Notes under the pieces: model-generated
Databases searched by the model: none
The model's input: only the letters and a program-made list of their open reading frames with translations
What the model was told of the DNA's origin: nothing
Made by a program: the position numbers and the translations under genes
NCBI GenBank assembly: GCA_964016885.1
Contig: OZ024744.1
Coordinates: 74,710,001 to 74,774,000, forward strand
Reading direction: 5' to 3'
DNA length: 64,000 nt
Source: Eledone cirrhosa
Lineage: Eukaryota
Shown here: positions 343-64,000 of the stretch, one piece after another
How positions within the stretch are numbered: position 1 is the first letter of the stretch
How the letters are laid out: every line of letters starts with the position of its first letter

Positions 343-425
<83 letters not shown>
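75..425. repeat. (TA)n microsatellite, representative of dozens in the window
   Basis: Direct reading of the sequence; source of the YIYIYI ORFs. Confidence 0.99.
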
Positions 426-426
<1 letters not shown>

Positions 427-437
427 GAATAAAGTTG

Positions 438-538
438 GTCCTTCATCAGTGATCTTCCAACCATCCTCGGTATTTCTTCGCTTTAAAGATTATATACCTC
501 CGATTGGTTCGAGCAACGGCTAAAGAAATCGTTGGGAC
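438..538 (-). ncRNA. Candidate permuted/pseudoknotted hammerhead-like RNA (family B)
   Basis: Minus strand: GTCC-hairpin-ctcgaa-CCAATC-gga-GGTAT-A-TAATCT-ttaaagcgaa-GAAATACC-gaggat-GGTTGG-a-AGATCA-CTGATGA-a-GGAC. Aligns with 60163-60263 with compensatory changes. Confidence 0.6.
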
Positions 539-784
539 ACGTAAATAAAGGGAACAGCTAGAGTGTAAACAAACAAAGATGGTGAAGCAACGAAAAGGGA
601 GGAAGAACGAGTCAAGTCCTAAATTTCTATGAATATAAGTTCGGTGAAATCGTGAACGAGAGGGAATAAAGACCATCAAACCTGGTTGAAATGTGAGCAA
701 GGAAGGAATTCCGCAATATATATATATATAAACAGGTAAAAGGATGATTAACACGGATAAGTGATATAATAGGCTTTTATTCCA

Positions 785-8516: not shown

Positions 8517-8985
8517 AGCTGTGGCACGCCGCTGTTGTTCTTCCTCTCAACCACATCATCTTCCGTATTCCCAATCCTTGCTCCCAAATACAGGAAGTCC
8601 TCAACCAATTCCAGCGGCTTCCCCTGCTACATTAGTGATCCCCTCTGGCTTCTCAACATTCTCTACCAGATATCTTGTTTTAGTCTCATTCATTCTCAGC
8701 CCCACACTCATCGACACAGTCTCAACCTCCCGCATCAAATCCTCTGCCTCCTTCACTGTATTTGTCACCAAAACTATGTCGTCGGCAAATTCAGCATCCG
8801 ATACCTTTTTCGCCCTAACTCTCCTGCTCTGAGCCGGTGCTACAGTAAAGCCAGTGTCCTGGTGTTTCTCCAGTGCAAGGTGCATACAATAGTCCACTAC
8901 GATGACAAAAAGATAGGGAGCTAATGTATCTCCCTGGAGCACTCCAGCCAGTATCTCAAAGAACTCTGTCATCCCATCAGGTGTA
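8515..8985 (-). pseudogene. RTE-type LINE reverse transcriptase fragment (inverted 5' part)
   Basis: GVLQGDTLAPYLF and FADDIVL motifs in ORF 8601..9089. Confidence 0.9.
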
Positions 8986-9465
8986 ATGTCGGACCTTCGT
9001 AGATACCTGAAAATCCGCCTCTTCATTGCTGTAGTGGAGTCTGTGCTGCTGTATGGGTCTGAGACTTGGACACTGACCAAGAAACTCACTCAGATGGTGG
9101 ATGGGTGCTACACGAGAATGCTGAGGATGGCTCTGAACATTAATCAGTATACACTGAGGATGAAAAACTCAGAGCTGTATGGGAGCATCCCAAAAGTCAG
9201 CTCAAATGTGACACAGAGGAGACTGAGGTTGGCTGGACATGCTCACCGACATCCAGAGTTGACATTGCACTCAGTGCTCCTTTGGGAGCCCCTACATGGA
9301 CACACTAGAAGAGGAAGACCAAGGTTAACGTATGTTGATGCCCTAAGGACAGACACTGGTCTGTTGGAGATGCAGGACATGGCAGCGATAATGAGGGACA
9401 GAGACCGCTGGAGAGATCTCGTCCATGGATCTCGGGAATTTTACCCGCCTTAGATAGATAGATAT
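8986..9465 (+). pseudogene. RTE-type LINE 3' end (C-terminal region and (AGAT)n tail)
   Basis: VESVLLYGSETWTLT...RRLRLAGH...GRPRLTY...DRDRWR; the stop codon is followed by tagatagatagat. Confidence 0.9.
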
Positions 9466-21609: not shown

Positions 21610-23898
21610 GTGGTAGCTCTGTTGTTGACAATTATGAGCGTCAAGGAAGTGCAGGTGAAACTCAGGGCCATGCAAAATGCCTAGTGGAGCGACAAAACAG
21701 ATGAAGTGCAAGCAACATCTGATGGCAACAATGTAAAACTGCTGCACTCTCTACTCAGAGAAGTGTATGGGCCTTTAAGATCACGAGTGACACCTTTGAG
21801 ATCGAAAGATTTCAAGCAGTTACTCCGTGATCCAGAAGACATACTCGACAGATGGAGAGATCATTTTGATGAGCCCCTTAAACCAGCCAGCCCAGGTTGA
21901 CGGTGATTTCATTTGCTCCATCCCTATTGAATCAGTGAAGCATGAGATGGCTGCTGTACCTTCTCTTACAGAGGTAACTTCTGCTGTGCATAAGCTGAAC
22001 TGTCGTAAGTCTCCTAGTATGGATGGTCTGAGTGCAGAGGTTTTGAAGTGTGGTGGTGAAACCTTCACACAGCGCCTGACTGACCTCATGAAAACATTGT
22101 GGGAAGATGAAAGTGTGCCACAAGAATGGAAGGATGCGCACATGGTGATTCTTCATAAAGGAAAAGGTGGGAAAGACAAATGTGGCAATTATCGTGGCAT
22201 ATCACTTCTTTCAGTAGTTGGTAAAGTCATGTGTCGAATGTTGATGGATAGATTGATCTCAAAGGTTGATTTCTGAATGTGTTGCCTGAATCGCAGTGTG
22301 GGTTCAGAAACGAAAGAGGAACAGTGGATAGGATTCTTTCTGCTCAGCAGCTACAAGAAAAGTGTATCGAACAATGTATGAACTTTTACCAGGTCTTTGT
22401 TGACTTGACAAAGGCCTTTGACACCGTGAATCGAATTGCGTTGTGGACAATTTTAGAAAAGCTTGGCTTCGCTCCAACTTTTGTGAACATTCTGCGTCTT
22501 TTTCATGATAACATGAAGGGTTGGGTCACTATTTGTGGTACCTTTTTGAACCAATATCAGTTGAAAATGGAATGAGGCAGGGCGACATTCCGGCTCCAAC
22601 TCTGTTTTCCTTATATTTTACTATAGTGTTTCTCATGGAATTCAAGAAAAGAATTTCGCATGGAGTTTACTTCAGGAAGATTATTCAACATCAGCCGTTT
22701 TGGTGAAAGCACGAAGGTATTAACATCTATAATCCGAGTGCTTTTGTATGTAGGTGCACACTGATAAAGTGACATGCAGCATATTAGGAACTCTTTTTCT
22801 GAAGCTTGCAACGCTTTGGGCCTCTCAATTAGCTTGGAAAACACTGTTGTGATGTACCAGCCAGCACCTGGGAATGAATACACTACACCAAGTGTGTATG
22901 TGTATAGAAAGAGGCTAAAAGTTGATGATAAATGTGTTTATCTTGGTAGTACGTTGAACAATTCATGCACACCTGATGATGAAATATTTTTAAGAATCAA
23001 GAAAACCAGTGATGCTTTTGGACAGGTGAATGAATGTGTATTGTCAAGACGAGGTATCACCATTGAAACCAAGGTAAAAGTGTATCTGAATTGTGTCGTC
23101 TCCTCTTTGCTTTATGCTTGTGAAACGCGGGTCACATACAGAAAGCACCTCAAGGAATTGAAGAGGTTCCACCAACAATCTCTTCGTAAGATAGTAAGGG
23201 TGCGATGGAAAATGTTTGTCAGTGATGTGGAAGTTCTCGAACGGAGCAGGTGCATGAGTATAGAGAACATGATCTTTCGGCACCGGTTGACGTGGTGCTC
23301 TCACGTGGTCCGGATGTCTGATAACTGTATTCCAAAGCAACTTCTCTACGGTGAACTGTGCGAAGGACGGCGACCATCACACAAACGAAAAATGTAGTAC
23401 CGTGCTGTGCCAGGAGCACCTTGGCTTGTGCTGGAATTTCATCTGACGAATGGGATAAAATGGCTGAGGAGCGAGTGAAGTGGAGACGTTTGATCAAGTC
23501 AGGAACTGGACACTTTCAAACTCGTCGAAGAGAACACATAACAGTGAAAGGAGGTGAGGAAAAGAGACTTTTTGAGCTGCCTGCTGCCGGCAATATCTGC
23601 CTGAGCAAAGCTGGTTTGATTAAACATGAAGAAAGTCATATCACTTAACCCCATGTACAATATGATCTGAAAAAGTGTAAGGAATGTGGCAAGGAATGTG
23701 CAAATATGGGAGGTCTTAAAAGACAAGAGAACACACAGTAAGAACCAAGCAGTGGAAAGTCGCAGTGGGGCCTACATTTGTCATGTGTGTGACAAAGAGT
23801 GCAAGTATTTGGCTGGTTGAAAGAGCCACATTCGTGCCTCGCATTTTTTAGCATTTTACCAAGGGATGGCAATGCTTGAACACGAGTTCGTGGCCATC
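21610..23898 (+). pseudogene. 5'-truncated, frameshifted RTE (BovB-like) LINE
   Basis: RKSPSMDGLSAEVLK, VPQEWKDA, NYRGISLLS, LPESQCGFR, FVDLTKAFDTV, GMRQGD, YLGS, LLYACET, HVVRMSDNCIPKQLLYGEL across successive frames. Confidence 0.95.
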
Positions 23899-41634: not shown

Positions 41635-41769
41635 TTATTTTACGATCGTTTCTAGGACATTTATGTGTTAGAATTGGAATGCATATTCAAAAGATCTATG
41701 TACAAAATTATACAAACTATCAAGGAGAATATACATACCATCACATATATATGCTGTCTTCAGAAATAA
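41635..41769 (-). ncRNA. Type I hammerhead with 104-nt domain II
   Basis: TTATTT-CTGAAGA-[104 nt]-GAAA-CGATCG-TA-AAATAA; mirror copy at 54116-54250. Confidence 0.75.
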
Positions 41770-42122
41770 TGAAGTATATTTATTGGTAATAACAACAATT
41801 CAAAATTACAGGTCTGTTTGGGAACAGATTTTAAATGGACCAATGAAATACATAAAAATTCATCAAGAAAATACAGTTAGGTGTGTGTATATATGTAAGT
41901 AAATTCGTTCACAGATATGCATAAAAATGTATGTTCATATGCATACGCATGTCGAAAAAGTGTATGTAAATATAAAAATTTAGGGCCAATGTATCTGTAT
42001 GTTTATAATCTACAGACAAAATATACATACATATACATATATATATACATACATATATATACACATATACATACTTGCATACACACACACGCATATATAC
42101 ATAAACACACACATACCCACGA

Positions 42123-42153
<31 letters not shown>

Positions 42154-42630
42154 TACGTATATATTATTATTATAACTATATGGATATTGAGGCGCACACA
42201 TAAACACGCCCACACACACTTACATTTAGATGCAGAATTAAAAGGAGGTAAGGGAGTAAGTAATTAAAGGAGAGTGTCAAACTCAGCATATTTATAAAGA
42301 TGTATCTATAAAGTTAGAAATAACAAAAATTTTTTTATAGAACGAAAAAACTTAAAAACGGGGGAACAAAAAATAAGGGGGGGGGGTTACGTACATACAC
42401 AGACGCGAATGTCTCACAAAAGAAATATAAAGAAACATAAAAAAACATAAAAGAGAGACATAAAATATACATGCTTATATACATACGCATATTTACACAT
42501 CCATACGTTCGATACATACATACGTACACACACACACATACACATACTTAACCTCACGCATATTAACCTGTTTGTATGCATTTACATAAAAACAAGTAAA
42601 ACATATACTCATACATATAAATACACACCG

Positions 42631-42671
<41 letters not shown>

Positions 42672-42715
42672 ACACACATATATACATATATACACACACA
42701 CACACACACATACAT

Positions 42716-42782
<67 letters not shown>

Positions 42783-42909
42783 TATACACACATATATATA
42801 TATATATATACACATACATATATATACACATACACACACACATACCCATGTATATATACACAACCACACACACACACACTCAGACATACATATATATAGA
42901 GACATACAT

Positions 42910-43055
<146 letters not shown>

Positions 43056-43091
43056 ATTATTATTATCTAATAAACAACATAAGGCAATTAT

Positions 43092-43149
43092 TCCATTTAC
43101 AAGTGGTTTCTTAAAAGCAAAAGGTTTTGCTTTCAATCCTCAGAATGAA
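43092..43149 (-). ncRNA. Type I hammerhead (distal, left arm)
   Basis: TTCATT-CTGAGGA-TTGAAAGCAAAA/TTTTGCTTTTAA-GAAA-CcacttG-TA-AATGGA. Confidence 0.8.
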
Positions 43150-43420
43150 AAATCCTAGTTTGTTTATTGAATTTGGATTCTAAAAACAAAAATGCAATCT
43201 ATATGAAAGTGAGGCTGGAAAAGGGAGAAGGAAAGGAAAAATAAAATAAAACTACACATGCAAACACACACAAAAAAACACAAAAGCATACTTACACACA
43301 CATACATATATACATATATATAAATGTACGCATACATATATACATATACATATAAAAAACATACACCTACACACACATACACATATATACACACATATAC
43401 ACATACATACATTCATACAT

Positions 43421-43467
<47 letters not shown>

Positions 43468-43499
43468 TACACACACACACACACATATATATATGTACA

Positions 43500-43551
<52 letters not shown>

Positions 43552-43977
43552 CACACATACACAGATACACACACACACACATGTGTGTGTACAAGCATAC
43601 ACATACACAAACATAGCCATACACACACACATATATATACACATACATACATTCACACAAACATACAACGTACATACATACACATACATGAATGCACTCC
43701 TCTACATATTCACACACGCAAATAAATATAAGAAAAAAATATATAAATAAATATTAAAAAATGTTTGACACCGATACATGCCCCAGCTAACAGGACAGAC
43801 ACGCGTGGTAAGTAATACACACAAAAGCACATATACATACGTACGAAATAGTAAACACATACACACACTCTCACACATAAATATACATATACAAATACAT
43901 AAACACGTACATACACATACATACACAAACACGCACACGTATACAATATAAACACACACATGTATATGTAATTATAT

Positions 43978-44040
<63 letters not shown>

Positions 44041-44237
44041 CAAAATATAAAAATATAAACGCACACACACACACGCACATATATATACGTAAACACACAT
44101 ATACATAGCTAAACAATTATACACATGCAAATACGTATATATCAAAAGCACGCACAACCAAATACAAACACACACACACACACACATACATAAAAATAAA
44201 TAAATACACACGCACACATATACATACATATATATAT

Positions 44238-44315
<78 letters not shown>

Positions 44316-44459
44316 ACGTACACATACACACATGCATACACATACACACACACACATATACATGTGTGTATGTGTAATGCTCAGTATTAGATAAGACAAA
44401 TGAACCTTACATAAACGTATATATAGTAGTAAAGTAATAAAGCAACACAAGGCAATTAA

Positions 44460-44517
44460 TCCATTCACCAGAGGTTTCTTAAAAGCAAAAAAAGTTTCCT
44501 TCAATCTTCAGAATGAA
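44460..44517 (-). ncRNA. Hammerhead paralog (proximal, left arm) with UG at the cleavage site
   Basis: TTCATT-CTGAAGA-..-GAAA-CCtctGG-TG-AATGGA. Confidence 0.7.
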
Positions 44518-44592
44518 AAAAAGCCTGGTTTATCCACATATACATACATATACACACACAAATATACAATTATATACACACATACACACACG

Positions 44593-44674
<82 letters not shown>

Positions 44675-44893
44675 CATATATATATATACATATATATATA
44701 CACACAAAAATACATACACATACACATAGATATGTGAAGGGCAAAATAAAAAGAATATATGGGGGGGGGGGCATAAGAGAAGGTAAAGTATAAGGGGAGG
44801 TAAGGGAGAAAAAATTTTGTAAATATACAAGAGTACAGAAGGTAGAGTCAGCAAAATAAAAACCGTAGCAAAAGTAAAGAGCAGAGAAGGAGT

Positions 44894-46279
44894 TCAAGGC
44901 GGTTGATTTCTCATAGGAGTGTCAATCCAGTTACAGATCAGATGCGATTTCAGATGAGGACAGCATCTGAAGATCTCAGTCTTTGAGTTAAGGCAAGCGG
45001 AAGTGGCTCTCAAGTTTAGCAAAATCCTATACTTTTCTGTGGTGCACAAAGAACAATTCTTTGTGCCCCTTTGGTACTCCCTCGAATGGTCTAATATAGA
45101 CCAATCAATAGAGTACGGGATATTACTATCGTTGAGATCCCATACCTTACTTGCAAGGGCCGTTGATGTTCGTTTATCAGAGTGCTTAAAAGAAGCGACA
45201 TGTGAGTAAAATCTGGTTTTAAACCTGTCCTGGGTCATACCGACATATCGCTCACTCCTGGCTGGCTGGTTGTTGATAACTGGCGTTATCTTAGCCTCAT
45301 AAACGACAGATTTTGTGTTACATTTACCCTGCAATGGGCATTCATCCGGCTTCCTGCAACTGCATCCTGGATTTATCCTCGTGCGGTTTGAACTGGTGAT
45401 TTTGGACTTCATGGATGGGCAACAAGAGTAGCTGATCTTAACTATATTCCTATTAAAAATCTTATAATATCTATGAATAGGAGGAAAATGTTTGTCTAAT
45501 AGTTCAAGGAATTTCCTTCCTACATTAGTTTTGACAGTTAGAGAGAAGGGGTGTGTGAACCAAATAATCTTCCTTTTCCTGTTATTATGGTTAGTTTTAG
45601 GGGGAGGGGAGTAGGTAAATAAGACATTTTTTCCGTAAAACCGCTGTTCTTAAGGGCTTTATTATAATAAGGGGCAGCTTTATTAAAAATGTCTATAGAC
45701 GAAGATAAGGTAGAAATCCTACGGCTAACGTTAGGAATAAGATTATTAAAAACTATAGGGGGATGGCAAGACTCTTTGTGTATATACCTCAGATTTTCAT
45801 TAGGTTTATGATAGGGTTTAAAAGAGGCAGTAAGTAGATCAAGATTAATATCAAGAAAGTTAGCATTAGTAAGATTCGTATCTATAGTAATTTTAAGGTT
45901 AAGATTAGCAAAAAGTATTAATTAAATCTTTACGGAATTTATCAAGATTATGGCCGTTGGTGGTATGAGAAACTGCTAATCCGTCATCATGGTATAAACC
46001 GATATTATGGGACGGAAATTTCTCTTTGAGTGTGTGGAGAAGGAATAATCCTACTAAGTCACACACATCCGCACTGTCATATGAACCCATTGCAACATCA
46101 AAAGAGCTTTCAGGGTTTGACTTTTTAACCCAAATATTATCATTAGTAAAAAGTAAAGTTTTTCTAGCATGAAAGATAATGTCCTCTTCTAATTTAGAGA
46201 TATTAATGAAGGGTCTTACAAAATCTAAGGCATTGGTTAATAAGGAAACAGTAATAGAACGGTAAAAATAATTCTCCAA
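44894..46279 (-). pseudogene. PLE RT (YHDD) and GIY-YIG endonuclease, frameshifted
   Basis: MGSYDSADVCDLVG, LYHDDGL, CSCRKPDECPLQGKC, YVGMTQDRFKTRFYSH, CSLC. Confidence 0.93.
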
Positions 46280-46299
46280 ATTAGAACTAACACTAACCT

Positions 46300-47668
46300 T
46301 TCACAGTGGCTAAATACTTCCTCTGTTATTTCTTGGTTCAATAATATACAAGGTAAAAATAAGTGTAGATTTACCCAAATTGATATCGTCGATTTTTACC
46401 CTTCTATTACTGCTTCCTTATTAACCAATGCCTTAGATTTTGCAAGACCCTTCATTAATATCTGTAAATTAGAAGAGGACATTATCTTTCATTCTAGAAA
46501 AACTTTACTTTTTACTAATGATAATATTTGGGTTAAAAAGTCAAACCCTGAAAGCTCTTTTGATGTTGCAATGGGTTCATATGACAGTGCGGATGTGTGT
46601 GACTTAGTAGGATTATTCCTTCTCCACACACTCAAAGAGAAATTTACTTTTGCTAATCTTAACCTTAAAATTACTATAGATACGAATCTTACTAATGCTA
46701 ACTTTCTTGATATTAATCTTTATCTACTTACTGCCTCTTTTAAACCCTATCATAAACCTAATGAAAATCTTAGGTATATACACAAAGAGTCTTGCCATCC
46801 CCCTATAGTTTTTAATAATCTTATTCCTAACATTAGCCGTAGGATTTCTACCTTATCTTCGTCTATAGACATTTTTAATAAAGCCGCCCCTTATTATAAT
46901 AAAGCCCTTAAGAACAGCGGTTTTACGGAAAAAATTTCTTATTTACCTAAACCCCCCCCCCCTAAAACTAACCATAATAACAGGAAAAGGAAGATTATTT
47001 GGTTCACACCCCCCTTCTCTCTAACTGTCAAAACTAATGTAGGAAGGAAATTCCTTGAACTATTAGACAAACATTTTCCTCCTATTCATAGATATTATAA
47101 GATTTTTAATAGGAATGTAGTTAAGATCAGCTACTCTTGTTGCCCATCCATGAAGTCCAAAATCACCAGTTCAAACCGTACGAGGATAAATCCAGGATGC
47201 AGTTGCAGGAAGCCGGATGAATGCCCATTGCAGGGTAAATGTAACACAAAATCTGTCGTTTATGAGGCTAAGATAACGCCAGTTATCAACAACCAGCCAG
47301 CCAGGAGTGAGCGATATGTCGGTATGACCCAGGACAGGTTTAAAACCAGATTTTACTCACATGTCGCTTCTTTTAAGCACTCTGATAAACGAACATCAAC
47401 GGCCCTCGCAAGTAAGGTATGGGATCTCAAGGATAGTAATATCCCGTACTCTATTGATTGGTCTATATTAGACCATTCGATGGAGTACCAAAGGGGCACA
47501 AAGAATTGTTCTTCGTGCACCACCGAAAAGTATAGGATTCTGCTAAACTTGAGAGCCACTTCCGCTTGCCTTAACTCAAAGACTGAGATCTTCAGATGCT
47601 GTCCTCATCTGAAATCGCATCTGATCTGTAACTGGATTGACACTCCTATGAGAAATCAACCGCCTTGA
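46300..47668 (+). pseudogene. PLE RT and GIY-YIG; in-frame deletion removes the YxDD motif
   Basis: ORF 46571..47668 runs LKEKF/TFANL and lacks the LYHDDGL segment present in the mirror copy. Confidence 0.92.
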
Positions 47669-47917
47669 ACTCCTTCTCTGCTCTTTACTTTTGCTACGGT
47701 TTTTATTTTGCTGACTCTACCTTCTGTACTCTTGTATATTTACAAAATTTTTTTCTCCCTTACCTCCCCTTATATTTTACCTTCTCTTATGCCCCCCCCC
47801 CATATATTCTTTTTGTTTTGCCCTTCACATACCTATGTGTATGTGTATGTATTTTTGTGTGTATATATATATGTATATATATATATGTATGTATATGTGT
47901 ATGTATATATTTGTGTG

Positions 47918-47953
<36 letters not shown>

Positions 47954-48028
47954 CGTGTGTGTATGTGTGTATATAATTGTATATTTGTGTGTGTATATGT
48001 ATGTATATGTGGATAAACCAGGCTTTTT

Positions 48029-48086
48029 TTCATTCTGAAGATTGAAGGAAACTTTTTTTGCTTTTAAGAAACCTCTGGTGAATGGA
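48029..48086 (+). ncRNA. Hammerhead paralog (proximal, right arm) with UG at the cleavage site
   Basis: Mirror of 44460-44517. Confidence 0.7.
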
Positions 48087-48222
48087 TTAATTGCCTTGTG
48101 TTGCTTTATTACTTTACTACTATATATACGTTTATGTAAGGTTCATTTGTCTTATCTAATACTGAGCTTTACACATACACACATGTATATGTGTGTGTGT
48201 ATGTGTATGCATGTGTGTACGT

Positions 48223-48344
<122 letters not shown>

Positions 48345-48576
48345 ATATATATATGTATGTATGTATATGTGTGCGTGTGTATTTATTTATTTTTATGTGT
48401 GTGTGTGTGTGTGTGTATGTATGTGTGTGTGTGTGTGTGTGTGTTTGTATTTGGTTGTGCGTGCTTTTGATATATACGTATTTGCATGTGTATAATTGTT
48501 TAGCTATGTATGTATATGTGTGTTTACGTATATATATGTGTGTGTGTGTGTGTGCGTTTATATTTTTATATGTTTG

Positions 48577-48635
<59 letters not shown>

Positions 48636-49061
48636 ATATAATTACATATACATGTGTGTGTTTATAACGTATACGTGTGCGTGTTTGTGTATGTATGTGT
48701 ATGTACGTGTTTATGTATTTGTATATGTATATTTATGTGTGAGAGTGTGTGTATGTGTTTACTATTTTGTACGTATGTATATGTGCTTTTGTGTGTATTA
48801 CTTACCACGCGTGTCTGTCCTGTTAGCTGGGGCATGTATCGGTGTCAAAAATTTTTTAATATATATTTATATATTTTTTTCTTATATTTATTTGCGTGTG
48901 TGAATATGTAGAGGAGTGCATTCATGTATGTGTATGTATGTACGTTGTATGTTTGTGTGAATGTATGTATGTGTATATATATGTGTGTGTGTATGGCTAT
49001 GTTTGTGTATGTGTATGCTTGTACACACACATGTGTGTGTGTGTGTATGTGTGTATGTGTG

Positions 49062-49114
<53 letters not shown>

Positions 49115-49157
49115 GATATTAAATAAATGGTAACTATAATTATAAAAACCATATTTA

Positions 49158-49219
49158 TTTCATTATATATATTTCAGGGATATCATATTAACAATATGTT
49201 ATGCCTTCTTCAGACAAAA
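49158..49219 (-). ncRNA. Type I hammerhead, left arm of foldback
   Basis: Mirror of 49379-49440. Confidence 0.75.
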
Positions 49220-49378
49220 TACAATATAGACAGTTTTATAAATAAATAGATTTGACATACCGTTCAACATCGACTTGTATTTGAAACGTTGATTTGGCAG
49301 TCAAATCAACGTTTCAAATACAAGTCGATGTTGAACGGTATGTCAAATCTATTTATTTATAAAACTGTCTATATTGTA

Positions 49379-49440
49379 TTTTGTCTGAAGAAGGGATAAC
49401 ATATTGTTAATATGATATCCCTGAAATATATATAATGAAA
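49379..49440 (+). ncRNA. Type I hammerhead, right arm of foldback
   Basis: TTTTGT-CTGAAGA-AGGGATA..TATCCCT-GAAA-TATATA-TA-ATGAAA. Confidence 0.8.
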
Positions 49441-49571
49441 TAAATATCGTTTTATAAATATAGTTTCCATTTATTTAATATCGTAAATATACTCCAAATA
49501 CTTGTTGAGTGCTTTTATATCAGTTATAAATATTTACTAGTTGTAACCCAACAATTTAAATATAACTTTCC

Positions 49572-49607
<36 letters not shown>

Positions 49608-49651
49608 GTACATATATATATATGTGTGTGTGTATGTGTGTGTGTGTGTGT

Positions 49652-49689
<38 letters not shown>

Positions 49690-49968
49690 ATGAATGTATG
49701 TATGTGTATATGTGTGTATATATGTGTATGTGTGTGTAGGTGTATGTTTTTTATATATATATATGTGTATATGTATATATGTATGCGTACATTTATATAT
49801 ATGTATATATGTATGTGTGTGTAAGTATGCTTTTGTGTTTTTTTGTGTGTGTGTTTGCATGTGTAGTTTTATTTTATTTTTCCTTTCCTTCTCCCTTTTC
49901 CAGCCTCACTTTCATATAGATTGCATTTTTGTTTTTAGAATCCAAATTCAATAAACAAACCAGGATTT

Positions 49969-50026
49969 TTCATTCTGAGGATTGAAAGCAAAACATTTTG
50001 CTTTTAAGAAACCACTTGTAAATGGA
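49969..50026 (+). ncRNA. Type I hammerhead (distal, right arm)
   Basis: Mirror of 43092-43149. Confidence 0.8.
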
Positions 50027-50135
50027 ATAATTGCCTTATGTTGTTTATTACATAATAATAATAATTAAGCTCTGTTGCCTACATAGAGCACTCTTTTTTC
50101 CTGGACTTTTCCGATGGAATTACTTCATTCATACA

Positions 50136-50225
<90 letters not shown>

Positions 50226-50306
50226 CACACAGTCAGACACTTATGCACATATATACACATACATACACACATCTCTACAAATACATATACATACACATAC
50301 ATACAC

Positions 50307-50401
<95 letters not shown>

Positions 50402-50649
50402 CACTCATACACACATATTTACATGCGCACATATGTATTTTTATACTCACATACAAACACACAAACATACATACACACTTACATACACATACATACATCC
50501 ACGCTTACAAATACGAATAATTATTGGGGGGGGGGATTAAAATTATTAGTGGGAAATAGTAAATATAGGTTTCAAGGAACATAGAATATTAATCTTCAGT
50601 TAAATCATAATATGTGTTTACATAGTTGCGTCAGTATTAGGAAATGGTA

Positions 50650-51590
50650 TCTGTAAGAAAGAAGGCTAAATTATGTATTTTAATATAAGTAGACTATTAA
50701 TTATAGGTTAATTAAAGTAAAAATAGTTAATATATTAATTTCTAAGGTGTATACTACTTAGGTTTATAATATTTAAAGCGGAATTTTGAAGTAAAACAGT
50801 AGTAGAGTATTAATTATAGCATAACTAAATTAAAAATATTAACATGATGGTATCAATTTTAGGAAATGAATTTTGTAATAGGGAAAGCCTAATTAAGTAT
50901 TTCATCGGTAGTAGAATATTAATTATAGGTTAACTAAATTAAAAATTATATATTAATTTCTATAATATATGTTAATTAGGTTTATAATAATTAAAGCAAA
51001 ATTTTGTATTTTATCTATAGTAGAATATAATTATAGGTTAACTAAATTAAAATTAATCTATATATTTATTTGTAAAGAGTATATTAATTAGGTATATATT
51101 TAAAAGTTTTTCTCAGTTTATGATTACACGATATTCTGCAATCCATCTGTATTAGAATTTTAATTATAAGCTAACTAAATTAAAATTATAGGTTAACTAA
51201 ATTAAAATTAATTTATGAATTAATTTCTAAATTGTATATTAATTAGGTTTATAATATTAAAAAGTATTTCTCTGTTATTAATTACACGATATTTTGTTAT
51301 ATTTCATCTGTAAAGGAATTTTAATAAAAGGTTAAATAAACTAAAATTAATCTATATATTATTTTCCAAAGTATATATTAATTATGTTAATAATATTTAA
51401 AAGTTTTTCACAGTTTATGATTATACGATATTTTTTAATTTCATCTGTAGTAGAATTTTAATTAAATTAAAATTATAGGTTAACTACATTTAAATTAATT
51501 TATATATTAATTTCTAAAATATATATTATTATTTAGGTTTATAATATTTAAATGTTTTTCTCAGTTTATGATTACACGATATAATTAATT
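50650..51590 (-). repeat. Degenerate tandem array (units of about 110-150 bp) derived from the PLE ORF 3' end
   Basis: TTTTCTCAGTTTATGATTACACGATA-like blocks at about 51555, 51405, 51265 and 51105, with AATTATAGGTTAACTAAATT repeats. Confidence 0.75.
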
Positions 51591-53935
51591 CCTGTCGCTT
51601 ATTTAATAGGATATCCTTAGATTTCATTATTTCAAATAGTTCTTGGGAACACAATCTACATTCATTTCTATTATTTTGATAAGGGGTGGCTCTTTTGAGC
51701 ACACTCCAGGTCATATCATATTCTATATTCTTATTTCTATAACTATTAATTTTTTCTGCTAGAGATGTTGTATTAGCCAGTGCGGCATTTTTAAAACTAT
51801 GTTTGTGGGTATTAAACATTACCTTAAAATTGTTAGAAGTAGCTCCTATATATGAGCAAATAGAATCTTTAGTTTTAACTTTACATTTATAAACTATGTT
51901 GTTAACAAGACAATTTCCTTTTAATGGGCAGTTTGCTTTGTTTCTACAGTTACAACCTTTCGTTAATTTTGTATTTGAGGAGATATTATGGTTAGTTTGA
52001 TGTATTGGTGGTATACTTATGGTATTTTTACATTTATATGCATTATAGGCACTTATATTTTGTTTTATGTTTTTGGTTGTTGAGTATGAGAATTTAACTG
52101 TTGATCTATTTAAGATTTGATGGTATTTGTGGTTTGGCGGGAAGTTTTTCTCTAGGATATTAACATTTTTTTAGGTATATTATCCTTAATTTGTAAATTA
52201 AATGGAGCATTATACCAAGTAACTCGTCTATTACGGTTTCTATGTTGTTTATTGTTTTTATAGGATGCATCGTGATGTTTACTAGGAGGATTAATGTTAA
52301 TGACCTCACCACGCACATTTTTAGTTAGATTTATTGATTTAGGTCTTTTAGCTTGTTTATTAGGAGTTTTATTAACATTTATTAGAGTTGTATGATGAGT
52401 AGATTTTTGATAGTTACTATACTTTATATTAGAGGAGTTAGAGAAATTTGGTTTTATGTTGGTATTTTGGGGTATAGTGTGAGTGGCATTTAGGTGTGTA
52501 CTTTTCATTTGGTGTTTGTTGGTAATATTAGGTTGTATGTTTATAGTGTTATTAGTAGAAGGTATATATTCCAATCTATTTTTGTGGCCACTTCTATCTA
52601 GAGCTTCGTTATAGAAGGTCGCATTTTTATCAAATACATCTTGGTTAGACGAAAGGTTAGAAATTCTAAGTGATATATTATATGCAAGGTTTTTAAGGAT
52701 AGATTTAGGGTGATTAGATTGTGAGTGTATGTAGTGTAAGTTTTGGTTGGGTTTATGGTAAGGTTGGTAGATACCCGTAGCTAAGTCTAAAGTTATATCT
52801 AGGAAATTAACTACTTTACTTGTGTTTTCAAAAGTAATATGAAGACTATAATAGTCTTTAAGGAAAGTTCTAATAAGCTTTTTGTTTTTTTCTACTTCTG
52901 AGAGGCTAAGGTTGTTGGAGAGAAGAAGACAGTCATCACGATATAAACCACCTTTAAGGTGGGGAAAGGAAGCATTTATGTTAAAAAGAAGAAAGAGGCC
53001 CACAAGATCAGTAATTTGGGCAGAATCGATTGAACCCATAGTAATATCAAATAGATTATTATATGTGTTTCTGGTCCAGTATTCATTCCGAAATTCAATA
53101 AGTGTTAGTCTAGCATGTGTAATAATATTAATGTCATCCAAAGTTAAGTTAGATCTATTTTTAGCAAATATCAAAGCTTTGTTCAGGAGTATAGGTGATA
53201 TAGAAGAATAGTAATTATCTATATCAAATTGTAGAAATGAAGCAGAAGATTTACATCTAATATTATTAAACCAGTTAATTACCTGGGAAGTGTTTTCCCA
53301 GAGTGGTAAATTAACATGTTTTCTTATTTGTGGGATGACTCTATCCAAAATTTTTTTGCTAATTATTCCAATATCCGATTTGGAGGGACATATAAGTCTT
53401 ATAGAAGGATTTGAGTTAAAGTTTGTTTTATGATCTTTCAGGTTGAAGTGTGGTCTTTTCAATGCCAAAGGTTCAGTTCTATCTTCAATATTTAGTTTAT
53501 TCACTATGTTGTGTGTTTTGTTGTTGATGTTGGTGAGTGACGCATTATTAGTTTTTCTATGATTTTTCCTGAGTTCTTTATATATGAACTCATTGTAATT
53601 TTCAATATCCATGTGATATAAGTTTCCAGTTTTGTCCGAGTGGACATGGATTTTTTTAGACTTTTTTAGGTCCAATAGGGTAGAATCAAGGTCCTTTTGA
53701 AAGATAGATTTATACTTCTTAAATTTGAGGTGTTTAATTAAATTAAAAAGGTCTTTCTCAAAGTCTTCAAGTAGAGAGTTGTGTGGTGGATTCTTGTAAG
53801 TAGTGAAATCATACATATATTTCCTATCTGTATATTTAGATTTTTTATCGAAGTGGTAGGCCCTCCATCTGTCTCTTCTGATAAATTGGTTAGTTTTCTG
53901 TATCATAAGGAGTAAGAAGTCATCCTTTTTCGACA
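51529..53935 (-). pseudogene. PLE RT and GIY-YIG ORF, near full length, frameshifted
   Basis: RWRAYHF, SDKTGN, LKDHK, FDIDNYY, MGSIDSAQ, LYRDDCL, NFLDITLDL, SNHP, WYNAP, CNCRNKANCPLKGNC, YIG, CRLC. Confidence 0.95.
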
Positions 53936-54305
53936 TGCGTATGCATATGAACATACATTTTTATGCATATCTGTGAACGAATTTACTTACATATATACAC
54001 ACACCTAACTGTATTTTCTTGATGAATTTTTATGTATTTCATTGGTCTATTTAAAATCTGTTCCCAAACAGACCTGTAATTTTGAATTGTTGTTATTATC
54101 AATAAATATACTTCATTATTTCTGAAGACAGCATATATAAGTGATGGTATGTACATTCTCCTTGATAGTTTGTATAATTTTGTACATAGATCTCTTGAAT
54201 ATGCATGCCAATTCTAACACATATATGTCCTAGAAACGATCGTAAAATAATGAACTTTTTTGTTTAATATAAGGAACTGTTTCTTTGTTTTATTCATTAT
54301 TTTTG
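53935..54305 (+). mobile_element. Inverted 3'-terminal copy at the 5' end of the 51529-53935 PLE (mirror of 41575-41952)
   Basis: Reverse-complement match of about 370 bp. Confidence 0.9.
54116..54250 (+). ncRNA. Type I hammerhead with 104-nt domain II
   Basis: TTATTT-CTGAAGA-cagCATATAT...ATATATGtccta-GAAA-CGATCG-TA-AAATAA. Confidence 0.75.
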
Positions 54306-54429: not shown

Positions 54430-56513
<2,084 letters not shown>

Positions 56514-60065: not shown

Positions 60066-60097
<32 letters not shown>

Positions 60098-60162
60098 ATA
60101 TGTGTGAAAAAATGGGGAGAAGAATACTGCAGGTTGCACATGGATAACATGTTATAAAATGA

Positions 60163-60263
60163 GTCCCTCATCAGTGATTTGCCGACGATCATAGATATTT
60201 CATTGCATTAAAAATCATATACCTCACGTCGGTGCAATAATAACTAAATAAAGTTATTAGGAC
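60163..60263 (-). ncRNA. Candidate permuted/pseudoknotted hammerhead-like RNA (family A, copy 1)
   Basis: Minus strand: GTCC-TAATAACT/AGTTATTA-TTGCA-CCGACG-tga-GGTAT-A-TGATTT-ttaa-TGCAA-t-GAAATATC-tatgat-CGTCGG-c-AAATCA-CTGATGA-g-GGAC. Confidence 0.65.
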
Positions 60264-60674
60264 AATTAAAACGCGTAAAGCGAGTGAGACAAGTAAGCAA
60301 CAGAGACGAAAGCTAACCGTAGAGAGGAAGGGAACAAGCTACATAGTTATTCTGTTAGCATAAGCTAGGTGAATATATGAGCGCTTAGAAAAAAGACCTT
60401 TCGAGATGAATCCAAACGTAAGAAAGAAGGAAAATGTATTCGTCGCGAACGGGGTGAAGTGAGAAGGGGAGAAACAGTGAGTGAGTGAGTGGAAGTGTGA
60501 GGAAGAGTTAACAGACATGACAGAGGGGGCGAAAGAAAGTAGGATAAACAGAGAGAACGAGGGAGCAGTAAGAGAGAGAGAGAGAAAAACAGAATTACAG
60601 TTTAGGTAAATATGTGTGAAAAAATGGGGAGAAGAATACTGCAGGTTGCACATGGATAACATGTTATAAAATGA

Positions 60675-60773
60675 GTCCCTCATCAGTGATTTGCCGACGA
60701 TCATAGATATTTCATTGCATTAAAAATCATATACCACGTCGGTGCAATAATAACTAAATTAAGTTATTAGGAC
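60675..60773 (-). ncRNA. Permuted HHR-like RNA, family A copy 2 (2-nt deletion in an internal loop)
   Basis: Same motif one 512-bp period away. Confidence 0.6.
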
Positions 60774-60893
60774 AACTAAAACGCGTAAAGCGAGTGAGAC
60801 AAGTAAACAACAAAGAGCAAAGCTAACCGTAGAGAGGAAGGGAACAAGCTACATAGTTATTCTGTTAGCATAAGCTAGGTGAATATATGAGCG

Positions 60894-61077
<184 letters not shown>

Positions 61078-61079
61078 AA

Positions 61080-64000
61080 TTAAAAAAGAAGCCTTTAATA
61101 CATTAAAAATCTTTATTTGCTGACAATGTTTCGTCCCATTAATTAGGACTCATCAGAGCAAGGAAAAGACAAAAAATATCATCGGCTAGAACAAGCCAAA
61201 TTCAGAAGAATAGCGAATGGATATTTAGGAAAATTATCATGGAAAGACATGTTAAACCTAATAGGGTGCATTGGTAAATAAAAACTATAGGGCAAGAGGG
61301 CAAGCAAACATTAAAACATCCACGTTAAAAGTACAATATAAGTCTAATACACGAAATACAACATAGTAATATAATGCGAGAAATAAGATATAAAAATTAT
61401 AATATAATATACAATTCAATGCAATACATAATACAGAAATAAAATTTAATACGTATATATATATACACGCACTCACACACATATATATATATACACACAT
61501 ATACACATTTACACATATTAACACAAATATATAAATATAAGCACTATAATAGAATAATCACCCTGACAGTGTGATTAAACAATATTAAAATAAATGAAAA
61601 AAAATATTGACATTAAAATAATATAAATACTTCCAACGTACCATGCAAAGTCAACAAAACGTGTAGAAAAACATTATGTATTCCACAGGGTAAAAAATAA
61701 TACGATAAAATAAAATAAAGTATGGTAAAAAAAAATATATATATATAATAGACAATAAATATACAGAGATATAGGCAATTCAAATACATATAATATTACA
61801 TATTACTATTACAATACCAGACACATAATTGCAAGGGAGAAAGATTTAACTCATATTTATTTAATATATTCATCGACACAAGTGACAAAAGATAGAAAAG
61901 ACAGACAGAAGCAATAAAGTGTATCATAGCAAAAGAAAACGAAAACAAAAACAAACACAAACACAAAATCGCGTAGGCGCAACAAACTGTTAGGTGACAA
62001 TTAATGATACAACTATTCAAAGTAAAAAAATTGAATAGAAACCCTTATCAATTTTAATTAATTTTATAAAAGTTAAATAAACATTATGGAGCACTCCATA
62101 TGGAACAAAATTTAAGTCACTAATGCCGATAGAAAATAAGATATTCCAATAAATGAGCTAATATATTCATCGAAAATATATTAATTTCCGTTATGACGAC
62201 TGACGTTATCCAAAGTAAAAATTCCAATTAAAACTATGGTGGACAAAAAGGAACAGAAAGAAGTAAAACTATGGAGGACAAGAAGGAACATAAATGTATA
62301 ATATATATATTCAATAAGGCAAAGATTAAGTGTAGAAAGAATGACGTTCATTAGCCGTAGATGTAGAAGACTAAAATTAAACTATTAGTTAGTCAAAGAG
62401 ACAATAAGATACACTCCAACGAAGGATGAATATAAAGGTAGAAGTATATAAGTCGACAAAGGATGAGTATAAAGATAGAGATATAATAATGGACAAGGAA
62501 CTCAATAGGTTAAATCAGCTAAAAAACTAGAAAACTATAAATCAATAAACCGAAGACAACTAATAATAATAATAATGAACTAAAAAAGCCAAAGTGATAA
62601 GGAATCCAAACAGCTAATGAATACGAATACGCCACAGAGAATTGTGTTATACATATAACTAAAAATCAACACACATATACATAGTCACAACAAAAATATA
62701 TATCTATTAAATATACCTACAGATACAAAACCCTATACCCACAGAACCAATCATATGCTAAACTTACACATATCAACCAGCTTAAGAGAATGTGTGTATC
62801 CATTCGCCAATGGTGATGAAGTATTTACGTCCAGCTATAGAAGACCCCATGCTATATAGACACCATAACTCACAGAAAAGAGTAAGTGGTATATTATGAA
62901 GCATAAAGAATATTTAAAAAAAATATATATATATATATATAAAAAAATATCAAGACAAGACGTCCAAACCAGAGTAGCAAAGTGAGATTCCGAAAAATCA
63001 ACTACCTGAGCTTTTAGGTTTATAATAGAAGAAGGAATTAGAGATAGCATGTGGACAGGATGAAAAGATTTCCGATTTTCTATTTAGTAATACGTTTTTA
63101 GAGAAAATTATACAATGGGTTTCTAGAATGCAAAGATTACAGAATTTAGCGTGGGTGGAATAATGGTTAGAATGGGCTACAATGCGCCAATGCAGACTGT
63201 ACGGTATACCAGTCCCTTTTAAATCCCAAATATGATGCGCCAAAGAAGTTGAGTTTTAAATTTATATGTTTAAAGTTAGAGACATGCAAATTAAATCTCG
63301 TTTTAAATGTATTAGATGCGGAGCATATATAAGTTTTACAAGATGAATTAGTCCTAACATCACATGCATAGACAATAGTCTTAGTGAGGCAGTAACCATT
63401 TAAAGGGCAGCTATTACTTCTTCTACAATTACACTTACTGGTATTAGTGATTAGCTCATTTCGCGAAATATTATTCCTAGGGTTATTTGACAACAAGTCC
63501 TGCTCGGGTGATACATTATTAATAGAACTATTAAAATTAGTAGTAAGTAAAGAGCAGTAGCCGTCCCTAATTTTCTTATTATTCGTGCTAGCAAGATGTG
63601 AACTAATGTTAGGGGGAGTAGAAAAGGAGAGTTTGATGACATTCTTATTGAAGATACTATGATATTTATTAGCAGGGGGGAAATTTTTCTCCAAAATAGA
63701 AAAGAAAGACCTAGGGATACTAGTTAGTACATCAAAATTATAAGGTGGGTTGAAGTAGGTATTAAGCCTTCTCCTATTCTTACCTTTACTATTCCTATCA
63801 CGTATCGTATCCATAGGATCAGGGTTTATGTCAGGACCAATTGAATTAACACTAGTAGAAACCGCTATAATATTACCACTGGGTGTACGTTCAGAGCGTC
63901 TATCCTGTCCATTACAACTAAGTTGACAATGTGTACCATTAGACACACTATTATAATTACTATTGCGGTTGGTATTCGAAGGGTGCGGTTTGGATTTATC
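61080..64000 (-). mobile_element. PLE 3' part (thumb and GIY-YIG to about 62998, long 3'UTR, HHR); continues beyond the window
   Basis: YFNPPYN, NFPPANKYHSIFNKNVIKLSFS, CNCRRSNSCPLNGYC..IVY, FKTRFNLH, HIWDLK, CNLC, SSCPH. Confidence 0.92.
61117..61161 (-). ncRNA. Canonical type I hammerhead
   Basis: TTGCT-CTGATGA-GTCCtaattaatgGGAC-GAAA-CATTG-TC-AGCAA, then ATAAA. Confidence 0.92.

Follow-up and report, generated by a model that had tools for sequence, protein, structure and literature searches.

We analyzed a 64,000-nucleotide (nt) stretch of the Eledone cirrhosa genome (GCA_964016885.1, contig OZ024744.1, positions 74,710,001 to 74,774,000 of the forward strand; here, the window) and focused on a 101-nt minus-strand segment at its positions 438 to 538, which an initial annotation had described as an independent, diverged copy of a permuted motif under selection for RNA structure. 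With a probability of about 0.7, this segment is a decayed, non-circularly permuted hammerhead ribozyme motif located at the 3′ end of a short repeat that is present in high copy and flanked by (TA)n arrays. Intact copies probably fold a normal hammerhead core within a closed, three-armed cage and would cut after AUA, which is a natural hammerhead site (PMC1636495), and the host repeat likely derives from Naiad Penelope-like retroelements. Window position 493/492 (minus strand) marks the predicted cut. With broken pairs in stem I, in helix b, and at position 11.1, the 438 copy itself would be expected to have little or no cleavage activity. Two further copies on the same strand belong to a sister family (family 2; the 438 copy belongs to family 1).

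60163..60263, minus strand: sister-family copy with all 35 modeled pairs intact, the best natural test candidate in the window.
60675..60773, minus strand: tandem duplicate of the 60163 copy at a distance of 512 nt, without two letters (GA) of the predicted kink-turn.

From the 5′ end of the RNA to its 3′ end, the parts of the 438 copy are as follows.

535..538, minus strand: bridge helix 5′ strand GUCC, pairing with 438-441; invariant in 3 of 3 copies, mean pair probability 0.90, no variant listed.
514..534, minus strand: hairpin of the predicted four-way junction, eight positions with one A.C mismatch; three two-sided changes and one one-sided change relative to the 60163 copy.
508..512, minus strand: helix b 5′ strand, the displaced partner of stem II; 3 of 5 pairs in the 438 copy, C-G versus U-A between families.
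502..507, minus strand: helix a 5′ strand, predicted to correspond to the stem I-stem II interaction helix; two two-sided changes between families.
499..501, minus strand: short strand (NGA) of the predicted kink-turn, a sequence pattern whose bulged strand is 463-468.
493..498, minus strand: block S, the stem III strand ending in AUA, invariant, with the predicted cut at its end.
487..492, minus strand: stem I strand after the site; 5 of 6 pairs in the 438 copy, 6 of 6 in the 60163 copy.
477..486, minus strand: UUAA linker (invariant), helix b 3′ strand, and position 11.1 (477).
469..476, minus strand: block G, the GAAA core (invariant) and the stem III strand, with 5 of 5 stem III pairs.
457..468, minus strand: 3-nt bulge, which varies freely (466, 468), then GAU and the helix a 3′ strand.
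443..455, minus strand: block C, the stem I strand and the CUGAUGA core; CUGAUGA identical in all three copies, without a listed variant.
438..442, minus strand: purine after the core (442) and bridge 3′ strand GGAC, as read in the sequence.

The blocks run in the order S-G-C (site, GAAA, CUGAUGA). AUA fits the NUH rule for the site, A15.1-U16.1 and stem III are present (5 of 5 stem III pairs in both families), and stem I forms between the site and CUGANGA, with one two-sided change between families. The strand before GAAA pairs not with the strand after CUGANGA but with the 5′ strand, forming helix b. After CUGAUGA come one purine, GGAC (which pairs with the 5′ GUCC), then the hairpin, and then the helix b partner, and we infer that the core is joined by the bridge, the hairpin, and helix b in a four-way junction that leaves at most one letter unpaired. 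For position 11.1, the partner may be either the purine that follows the core or the letter 5′ of helix b. A viroid hammerhead is reported to carry an extra nucleotide in its core, reportedly between A9 and G10.1, the site of the insertion here.

A kink-turn consists of a 3-nt bulge followed by tandem G.A and A.G pairs between two helices. Both families have this sequence pattern between stem III and helix a, so that helix a appears to run on into stem III, with the predicted kink-turn bending the latter. The 60675 copy, which lacks the kink-turn GA, offers a natural knockout for comparison with the 60163 copy. A selenocysteine insertion sequence, in which the G.A pairs stand at the loop-side helix, was rejected as a reading of the UGA/GA joint, whose G.A pairs stack on the outer helix. 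In the proposed fold, stems I, II (helix b), and III would meet at a normal catalytic core, and their far ends would be tied by a second junction, where the kink-turn would fold stem III back onto helix a. This second junction and the kink-turn would replace the usual loop I-loop II contact, and both RNA ends would exit through the bridge helix and the hairpin, inserted right after the last A of CUGAUGA.

Comparison among the window copies carries much of this interpretation. The 438 and 60163 copies aligned without gaps (68 of 101 letters identical; BLAST, 78% over 72 nt, E = 3e-11), and the 60675 copy aligned to the 438 copy with a two-letter gap. Between the 438 and 60163 copies, the hammerhead core letters were identical at 13 of 13 positions, compared to 55 of 88 elsewhere in the motif (Fisher P = 0.004), and the CUGANGA and GAAA letters were identical in all three copies. 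Among the 35 modeled pairs, 20 were unchanged, 3 had changed on one side, 7 had changed on both sides, and 5 were broken, all 5 of them in the 438 copy. Stems I and III, helix a, helix b, and the hairpin have all changed in sequence while preserving pairing. In the 27 non-hairpin pairs, 95% of cells pair, compared to 25 to 52% when the partners were slid by one to three columns, a control that is weak because it holds only three related rows. A generic descriptor (site, GAAA, and CUGANGA with stems I and III) matched the window three times, at exactly the three copies, and 100 dinucleotide shuffles of the window gave a mean of 0.03 matches (maximum, 1). None of 23 metagenome loci selected by those same words matched it; we took these loci as chance, none of them having a stem I of at least 5 of 6 pairs. 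A pattern scan of viral contigs gave 0 matches, and a covariance model built from the three copies, as had been suggested, found no fourth copy within the window.

The changes that the initial annotation had quoted for helix a, the hairpin, stem I (with its one A.C mismatch), and stem III are all present in the sequence, as are the invariant GTCC/GGAC, GGTATA, GAAATA, ATCACTGATGA, and 10-nt spacer, and helix b is indeed weaker in the 438 copy, with 3 pairs in register. It correctly noted the change in the hairpin while omitting an A.C mismatch there and a one-letter offset between the copies (loop of 5 versus 6, with an extra C after the hairpin). Its description of the flanks as loosely similar did not hold upstream, where the likeness between the 438 and 60163 copies was no greater than in shuffles (266 of 500 scored as high), and the two families therefore have only the structured part in common. 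The copy is independent in being a separately inserted member of a sister family, not in having a separate origin. The initial annotation was silent on the decay of the 438 copy, the displaced partner strand of stem II, and the kink-turn-like joint; its interpretation is otherwise supported.

We then drew on sequence variants that had not been used in drawing the structure. Four public runs available as DNA-type contigs were used, three from one sample of organism A and one from organism B (no RNA run was listed among the public runs, a result that carries no information on expression); organism A may not be the species of the window, as the best run has 0.12 of the window's words. In organism A, each run gave 1092 to 1240 contigs on positions 400-740 (family 1) and 1629 to 1796 on positions 60095-60625 (family 2); the corresponding counts for organism B were 40 and 66. 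Both families are high-copy, and depth yields no copy number. The common letters of family 1 mend three of the five pairs broken in the 438 copy: a variant at 491 restores the stem I pair, a variant at 509 restores a fourth pair in helix b (each at 99.8 to 100% of depth), and 477 is U in 56 to 87% of depth, so that position 11.1 could pair with 442. A minor variant at 482 (6 to 13% of depth) mends a fifth helix b pair; the A.C mismatch of the hairpin stays. Because the common letters mend broken pairs, it is the 438 copy that is decayed and not the family itself.

Changes at 490 and 471 in family 1 convert A-U to G.U. Within helix a of family 2, a single pair has two variants (46 to 51% and 48 to 61%) that swap G-C for A-U; in the same family, one variant converts G.U to G-C in stem III, and another alters helix b; stem III accordingly has both G-C/G.U and A-U/G.U variants. 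Among the variants listed, every common substitution at a paired position was able to pair (7 of 7 in family 1 and 4 of 4 in family 2; rough joint chance, 1e-5), and the remaining 7 common substitutions sit in loops, the bulge, or the joint. The third bulge letter is U in 64 to 97% of depth and G in the 438 copy, and the hairpin has a one-letter-longer form in 6 to 16% of depth plus loose ends. For family 1, neither a variant in the core or bridge nor a pile-up of contig ends was listed. Loose ends behind 486 in runs X1 and X2 indicate another subfamily, whose stem I strand is rich in G+C and which has C at 11.1.

Taken with the covariation between families, these variants support the claim of selection on RNA structure. 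Substitutions respect pairing, and the two families have no reading frame in common. The G-U pairing in CCAATC/GGTTGG, which had been offered as evidence for the minus strand, is poor evidence because it is private to the 438 copy (position 503 in helix a is C-G in 99.8% of contig depth); G-U pairs at the family level and the orientation of the core do give the minus strand.

The two families sit in short non-coding repeats between TA arrays.

421..715, minus strand: host element of the 438 copy, a 5′-truncated, non-coding repeat copy of ~295 nt flanked by (TA)n arrays (75-426 and 716-730).
60101..60897, minus strand: partial tandem of a 512-nt non-coding repeat (~1.6 units) flanked by (TA)n arrays, with 97% identity over 290 nt in a self-BLAST.

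The 438 motif lies 16 nt from the 3′ end of its host element, which is considered 5′ truncated because the loose ends of its relatives extend past 713-715. In the sister family, the site-to-site distance is 512 nt, and head-to-tail joints of 479 to 505 nt were found in runs X1, X2, and X4; no such joint was listed for the family 1 contigs on 400-740.

The link to Naiads comes from published consensus sequences. Naiads prefer (TA)n and were reported without canonical hammerheads, and 17 of them retain a core or half core matching no descriptor ("HHR_core," 9; "HHR_half_core," 8) (PMC8557442). We read 22 of the 54 Naiad consensus 3′ ends (~400 letters each; PMC8557442, File S5) by eye, without computation, and named them by following header and metadata sheet order. 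The same wiring, with unrelated stem sequences, was seen in 6 of the 22 (Naiad_Obim, Naiad_Ovul, Naiad_Amil, Aacu, Anas, and 2_Movir); three of these families, nearly identical to one another, come from the coral Acropora, one from the box jellyfish Morbakka, and two, again nearly identical, from Octopus, so that three independent lineages are represented. Euprymna and Beroe ends showed the wiring in part. Three more ends, from two nematode families and one spider family, were of type CSG, a permutation described from two metagenome sequences only. Naiad-3_Nbra, Naiad_Hcon, and Naiad_Smim have a complete type-CSG layout, with stems I to III and an interaction helix, and the spider Naiad has a single extra letter after the core. 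The setting that had been anticipated for the motif, in termini of Penelope-like elements or in tandem units, was thus found in part, as tandem units of ~500 nt in the sister family and as the same fold at Naiad 3′ ends.

We lean toward a broader view in which Naiads and their short derivatives carry a family of active hammerheads, with one closed three-armed cage opened differently per phylum. Nematodes and a spider would use type CSG, and cnidarians, cephalopods, and this genome would fall outside the six permutations thought possible: a four-way junction would divide the catalytic block, and a protein-binding kink-turn would bend stem III. This would supply the Naiad ribozyme that has been missing, and it would be the first example of non-circular RNA permutation in chromosomes and in many copies.

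It is important to note that several observations weigh against reading the motif as a cleaving, Naiad-derived hammerhead. Cleavage is a prediction from sequence. A direct stem II, between the strands after CUGANGA and before GAAA, has at most one pair, and block C, which is uninterrupted in the published type SGC, is interrupted here. Naiad versions close stem II with a G-C pair from the 5′ strand, whereas 11.1 is U here, and in organism A, 30 to 44% of depth at 477 shows no U. Stem I and helix b are weak on their own (-1.2 to -3.5 kcal/mol) and have pair probabilities of 0.00 to 0.02 in a pseudoknot-free model, and the folding z-scores of the whole motif are modest (-1.4 and -1.5). A six-frame search of the window turned up no protein motif of a Naiad-type open reading frame (ORF), and 11 of the 22 Naiad ends held nothing resolvable by eye in the stretch displayed. 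Moreover, the contig variants are unphased, depth weighted, and from two samples; the family 2 tally covers the variants listed, with 32 further variant rows outside it; and two rare variants (477 and 489) that are non-pairing alone were excluded from the count. These two occur at ~1% or less in organism A and in one contig in organism B, and their partners lie at or past the end of that contig.

The failure of the pseudoknot-free model to form stem I or helix b could also mean that the RNA avoids a knotted single-molecule fold and cuts as a dimer, or between tandem units, by strand exchange. The sister family does form tandems, and dimeric cleavage is known for amphibian retrozymes (PMC7229834). 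We nevertheless consider this unlikely, since helix b is self-complementary only in the sister family and not in the common form of family 1, no tandem reading of site-GAAA-CUGAUGA yields a plain type I to III order from neighboring blocks, and single type-SGC constructs cleaved during transcription (PMC10085705).

Slightly less likely still is a real fold that has lost catalysis and persists as a hammerhead-derived scaffold, serving as a signal for a reverse transcriptase (RT) or for an L7Ae-type protein that binds kink-turns. The split stem II, the uncertain 11.1 pair, and the weakness of stem I and helix b would suit such a scaffold, as would the common third bulge letter of the predicted kink-turn, U, which is the letter gripped by L7Ae-type proteins. 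Against it, all 13 core letters are kept across two families that are 68% alike, and the core also persists in Naiads from several phyla; a non-catalytic scaffold does not readily account for this.

A chance likeness, a protein-coding remnant, or a piece resembling a box C/D small nucleolar RNA (snoRNA) is very improbable, having been largely refuted by the contig variants, the alignment, and the descriptor tests that shuffles and the 23 control loci fail: the 130-codon stop-to-stop frame that overlaps the 438 copy stops inside the core and has no Pfam match, and the weak C/D snoRNA matches on the sister copies (E, 2.5 to 8.4; 18 to 19 bits versus Rfam cutoffs of 65 to 85, far under the gathering score) lack the box layout (box C near the 5′ end and box D near the 3′ end, within a terminal stem), their only UGAUGA lying near the 3′ end, and have no Rfam counterpart on 425-720.

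Elsewhere, the window is rich in Penelope-like ORFs in which the endonuclease follows the RT and which end in ordinary type I hammerheads. We rejected these ORFs as Naiad-like because of that domain order, and we found no ORF in the window that joins an N-terminal GIY-YIG and a C-terminal RT to the motif. None of the seven ORFs tried against Pfam matched, including the 130-codon frame. Among the Rfam matches listed for the whole window (150 of 279), only microsatellite-driven microRNA models appeared, and the Rfam hammerhead models of types I to III left the motif unmatched up to an E value of 10, including in a search of 425-720. A canonical type I hammerhead at 61099-61174 was found by Rfam HH9. 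Ordinary or minimal type I-like motifs (CUGANGA...GAAA) from several repeat families stand at 17(+), 2212(-), 13709(+), 26144(-), 35780(-), 37400(-), 39714(+), 49213(-), 49385(+), 56826(-), 57064(+), and 61156(-), and among them only 61099-61174 matched HH9. Mirror-image pairs (41763/54122, 43143/49975, 44511/48035, and 44967/47595) at ~41700-54200 suggest that a large inverted duplication surrounds two remnants of Penelope-like ORFs. Remnants of RT frames from non-LTR (long terminal repeat) retrotransposons lie at 8601-9453 and 21800-23397, and an (AT)n array of >2 kb lies at 54430-56512.

Non-circularly permuted hammerheads have so far come from environmental sequence, and six block orders were held to be complete. 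If our interpretation is true, the split-block form extends the six-order scheme and places it in animal chromosomes at high copy. The claim that Naiads are hammerhead free, once used to argue that hammerheads may only parasitize Penelope-like elements, would be overturned as well, and the role of such ribozymes in retrotransposition would become testable with a 101-nt RNA. Tandem transcripts would yield RNAs of one unit each (512 nt in the sister locus), a processing step shown for type I retrozymes (PMC7229834). These might then be circularized, or reverse transcribed by the enzyme of an autonomous element, as proposed for retrozymes (bioRxiv 10.64898/2026.07.22.740005).

The animal non-LTR retrozymes are similarly short, non-coding, AT-rich tandems with one ribozyme per unit and are proposed to be non-autonomous Penelope-like derivatives (PMC7229834; bioRxiv 10.64898/2026.07.22.740005). 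Retrozymes are also expressed as linear and circular monomers. The sister family shares the non-coding tandem units with one ribozyme each. Retrozymes, however, carry type I hammerheads in units of ~150 to 450 bp, whereas the motif here has the order S-G-C and units of ~480 to 512 nt. The canonical type I hammerhead of Penelope-like pseudo-LTRs at 61099-61174 has the same core letters and the same place near a 3′ end beside (TA)n, but it forms a plain three-way junction that Rfam detects.

The closest published ribozymes are the type-SGC hammerheads (HRIMA-1 and variants), which cleave in vitro (Eckert et al. 2023, PMC10085705). They share the order site-GAAA-CUGAUGA, the full core, a short linker between stems I and II (4 nt here, typically 3 in type SGC), and an extra helix (helix a here) that ties the far ends of these stems. 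In type SGC, the stem II strand directly follows CUGAnGA, a continuity that Eckert et al. take as obligatory, and here it stands at the 5′ end behind the bridge helix and hairpin. Only here does the interaction helix enter stem III through a predicted kink-turn. Type-SGC sequences come from metatranscriptomes and were shown to cleave, whereas the motif here comes from chromosomal repeats known from sequence alone. A term search of PMC10162972 and PMC3088659 gave no comparable junction, and the split-block wiring was not found in the literature searched, which excluded subscription journals and bioRxiv supplements. The motif thus falls outside types I to III and, by the break in block C, outside type SGC, yet we infer that it works like them.

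Naiad elements are likewise close to the motif. The window copies differ from them in having no attached ORF and agree with them in the (TA)n insertion preference and the 3′ motif. Naiad_Amil, Aacu, Anas, and 2_Movir share the wiring and the UUAA linker, and Naiad_Obim and Naiad_Ovul share the same helices, the 6-nt hairpin loop, the A.C mismatch of the hairpin, and the UGA/UGAU joint.
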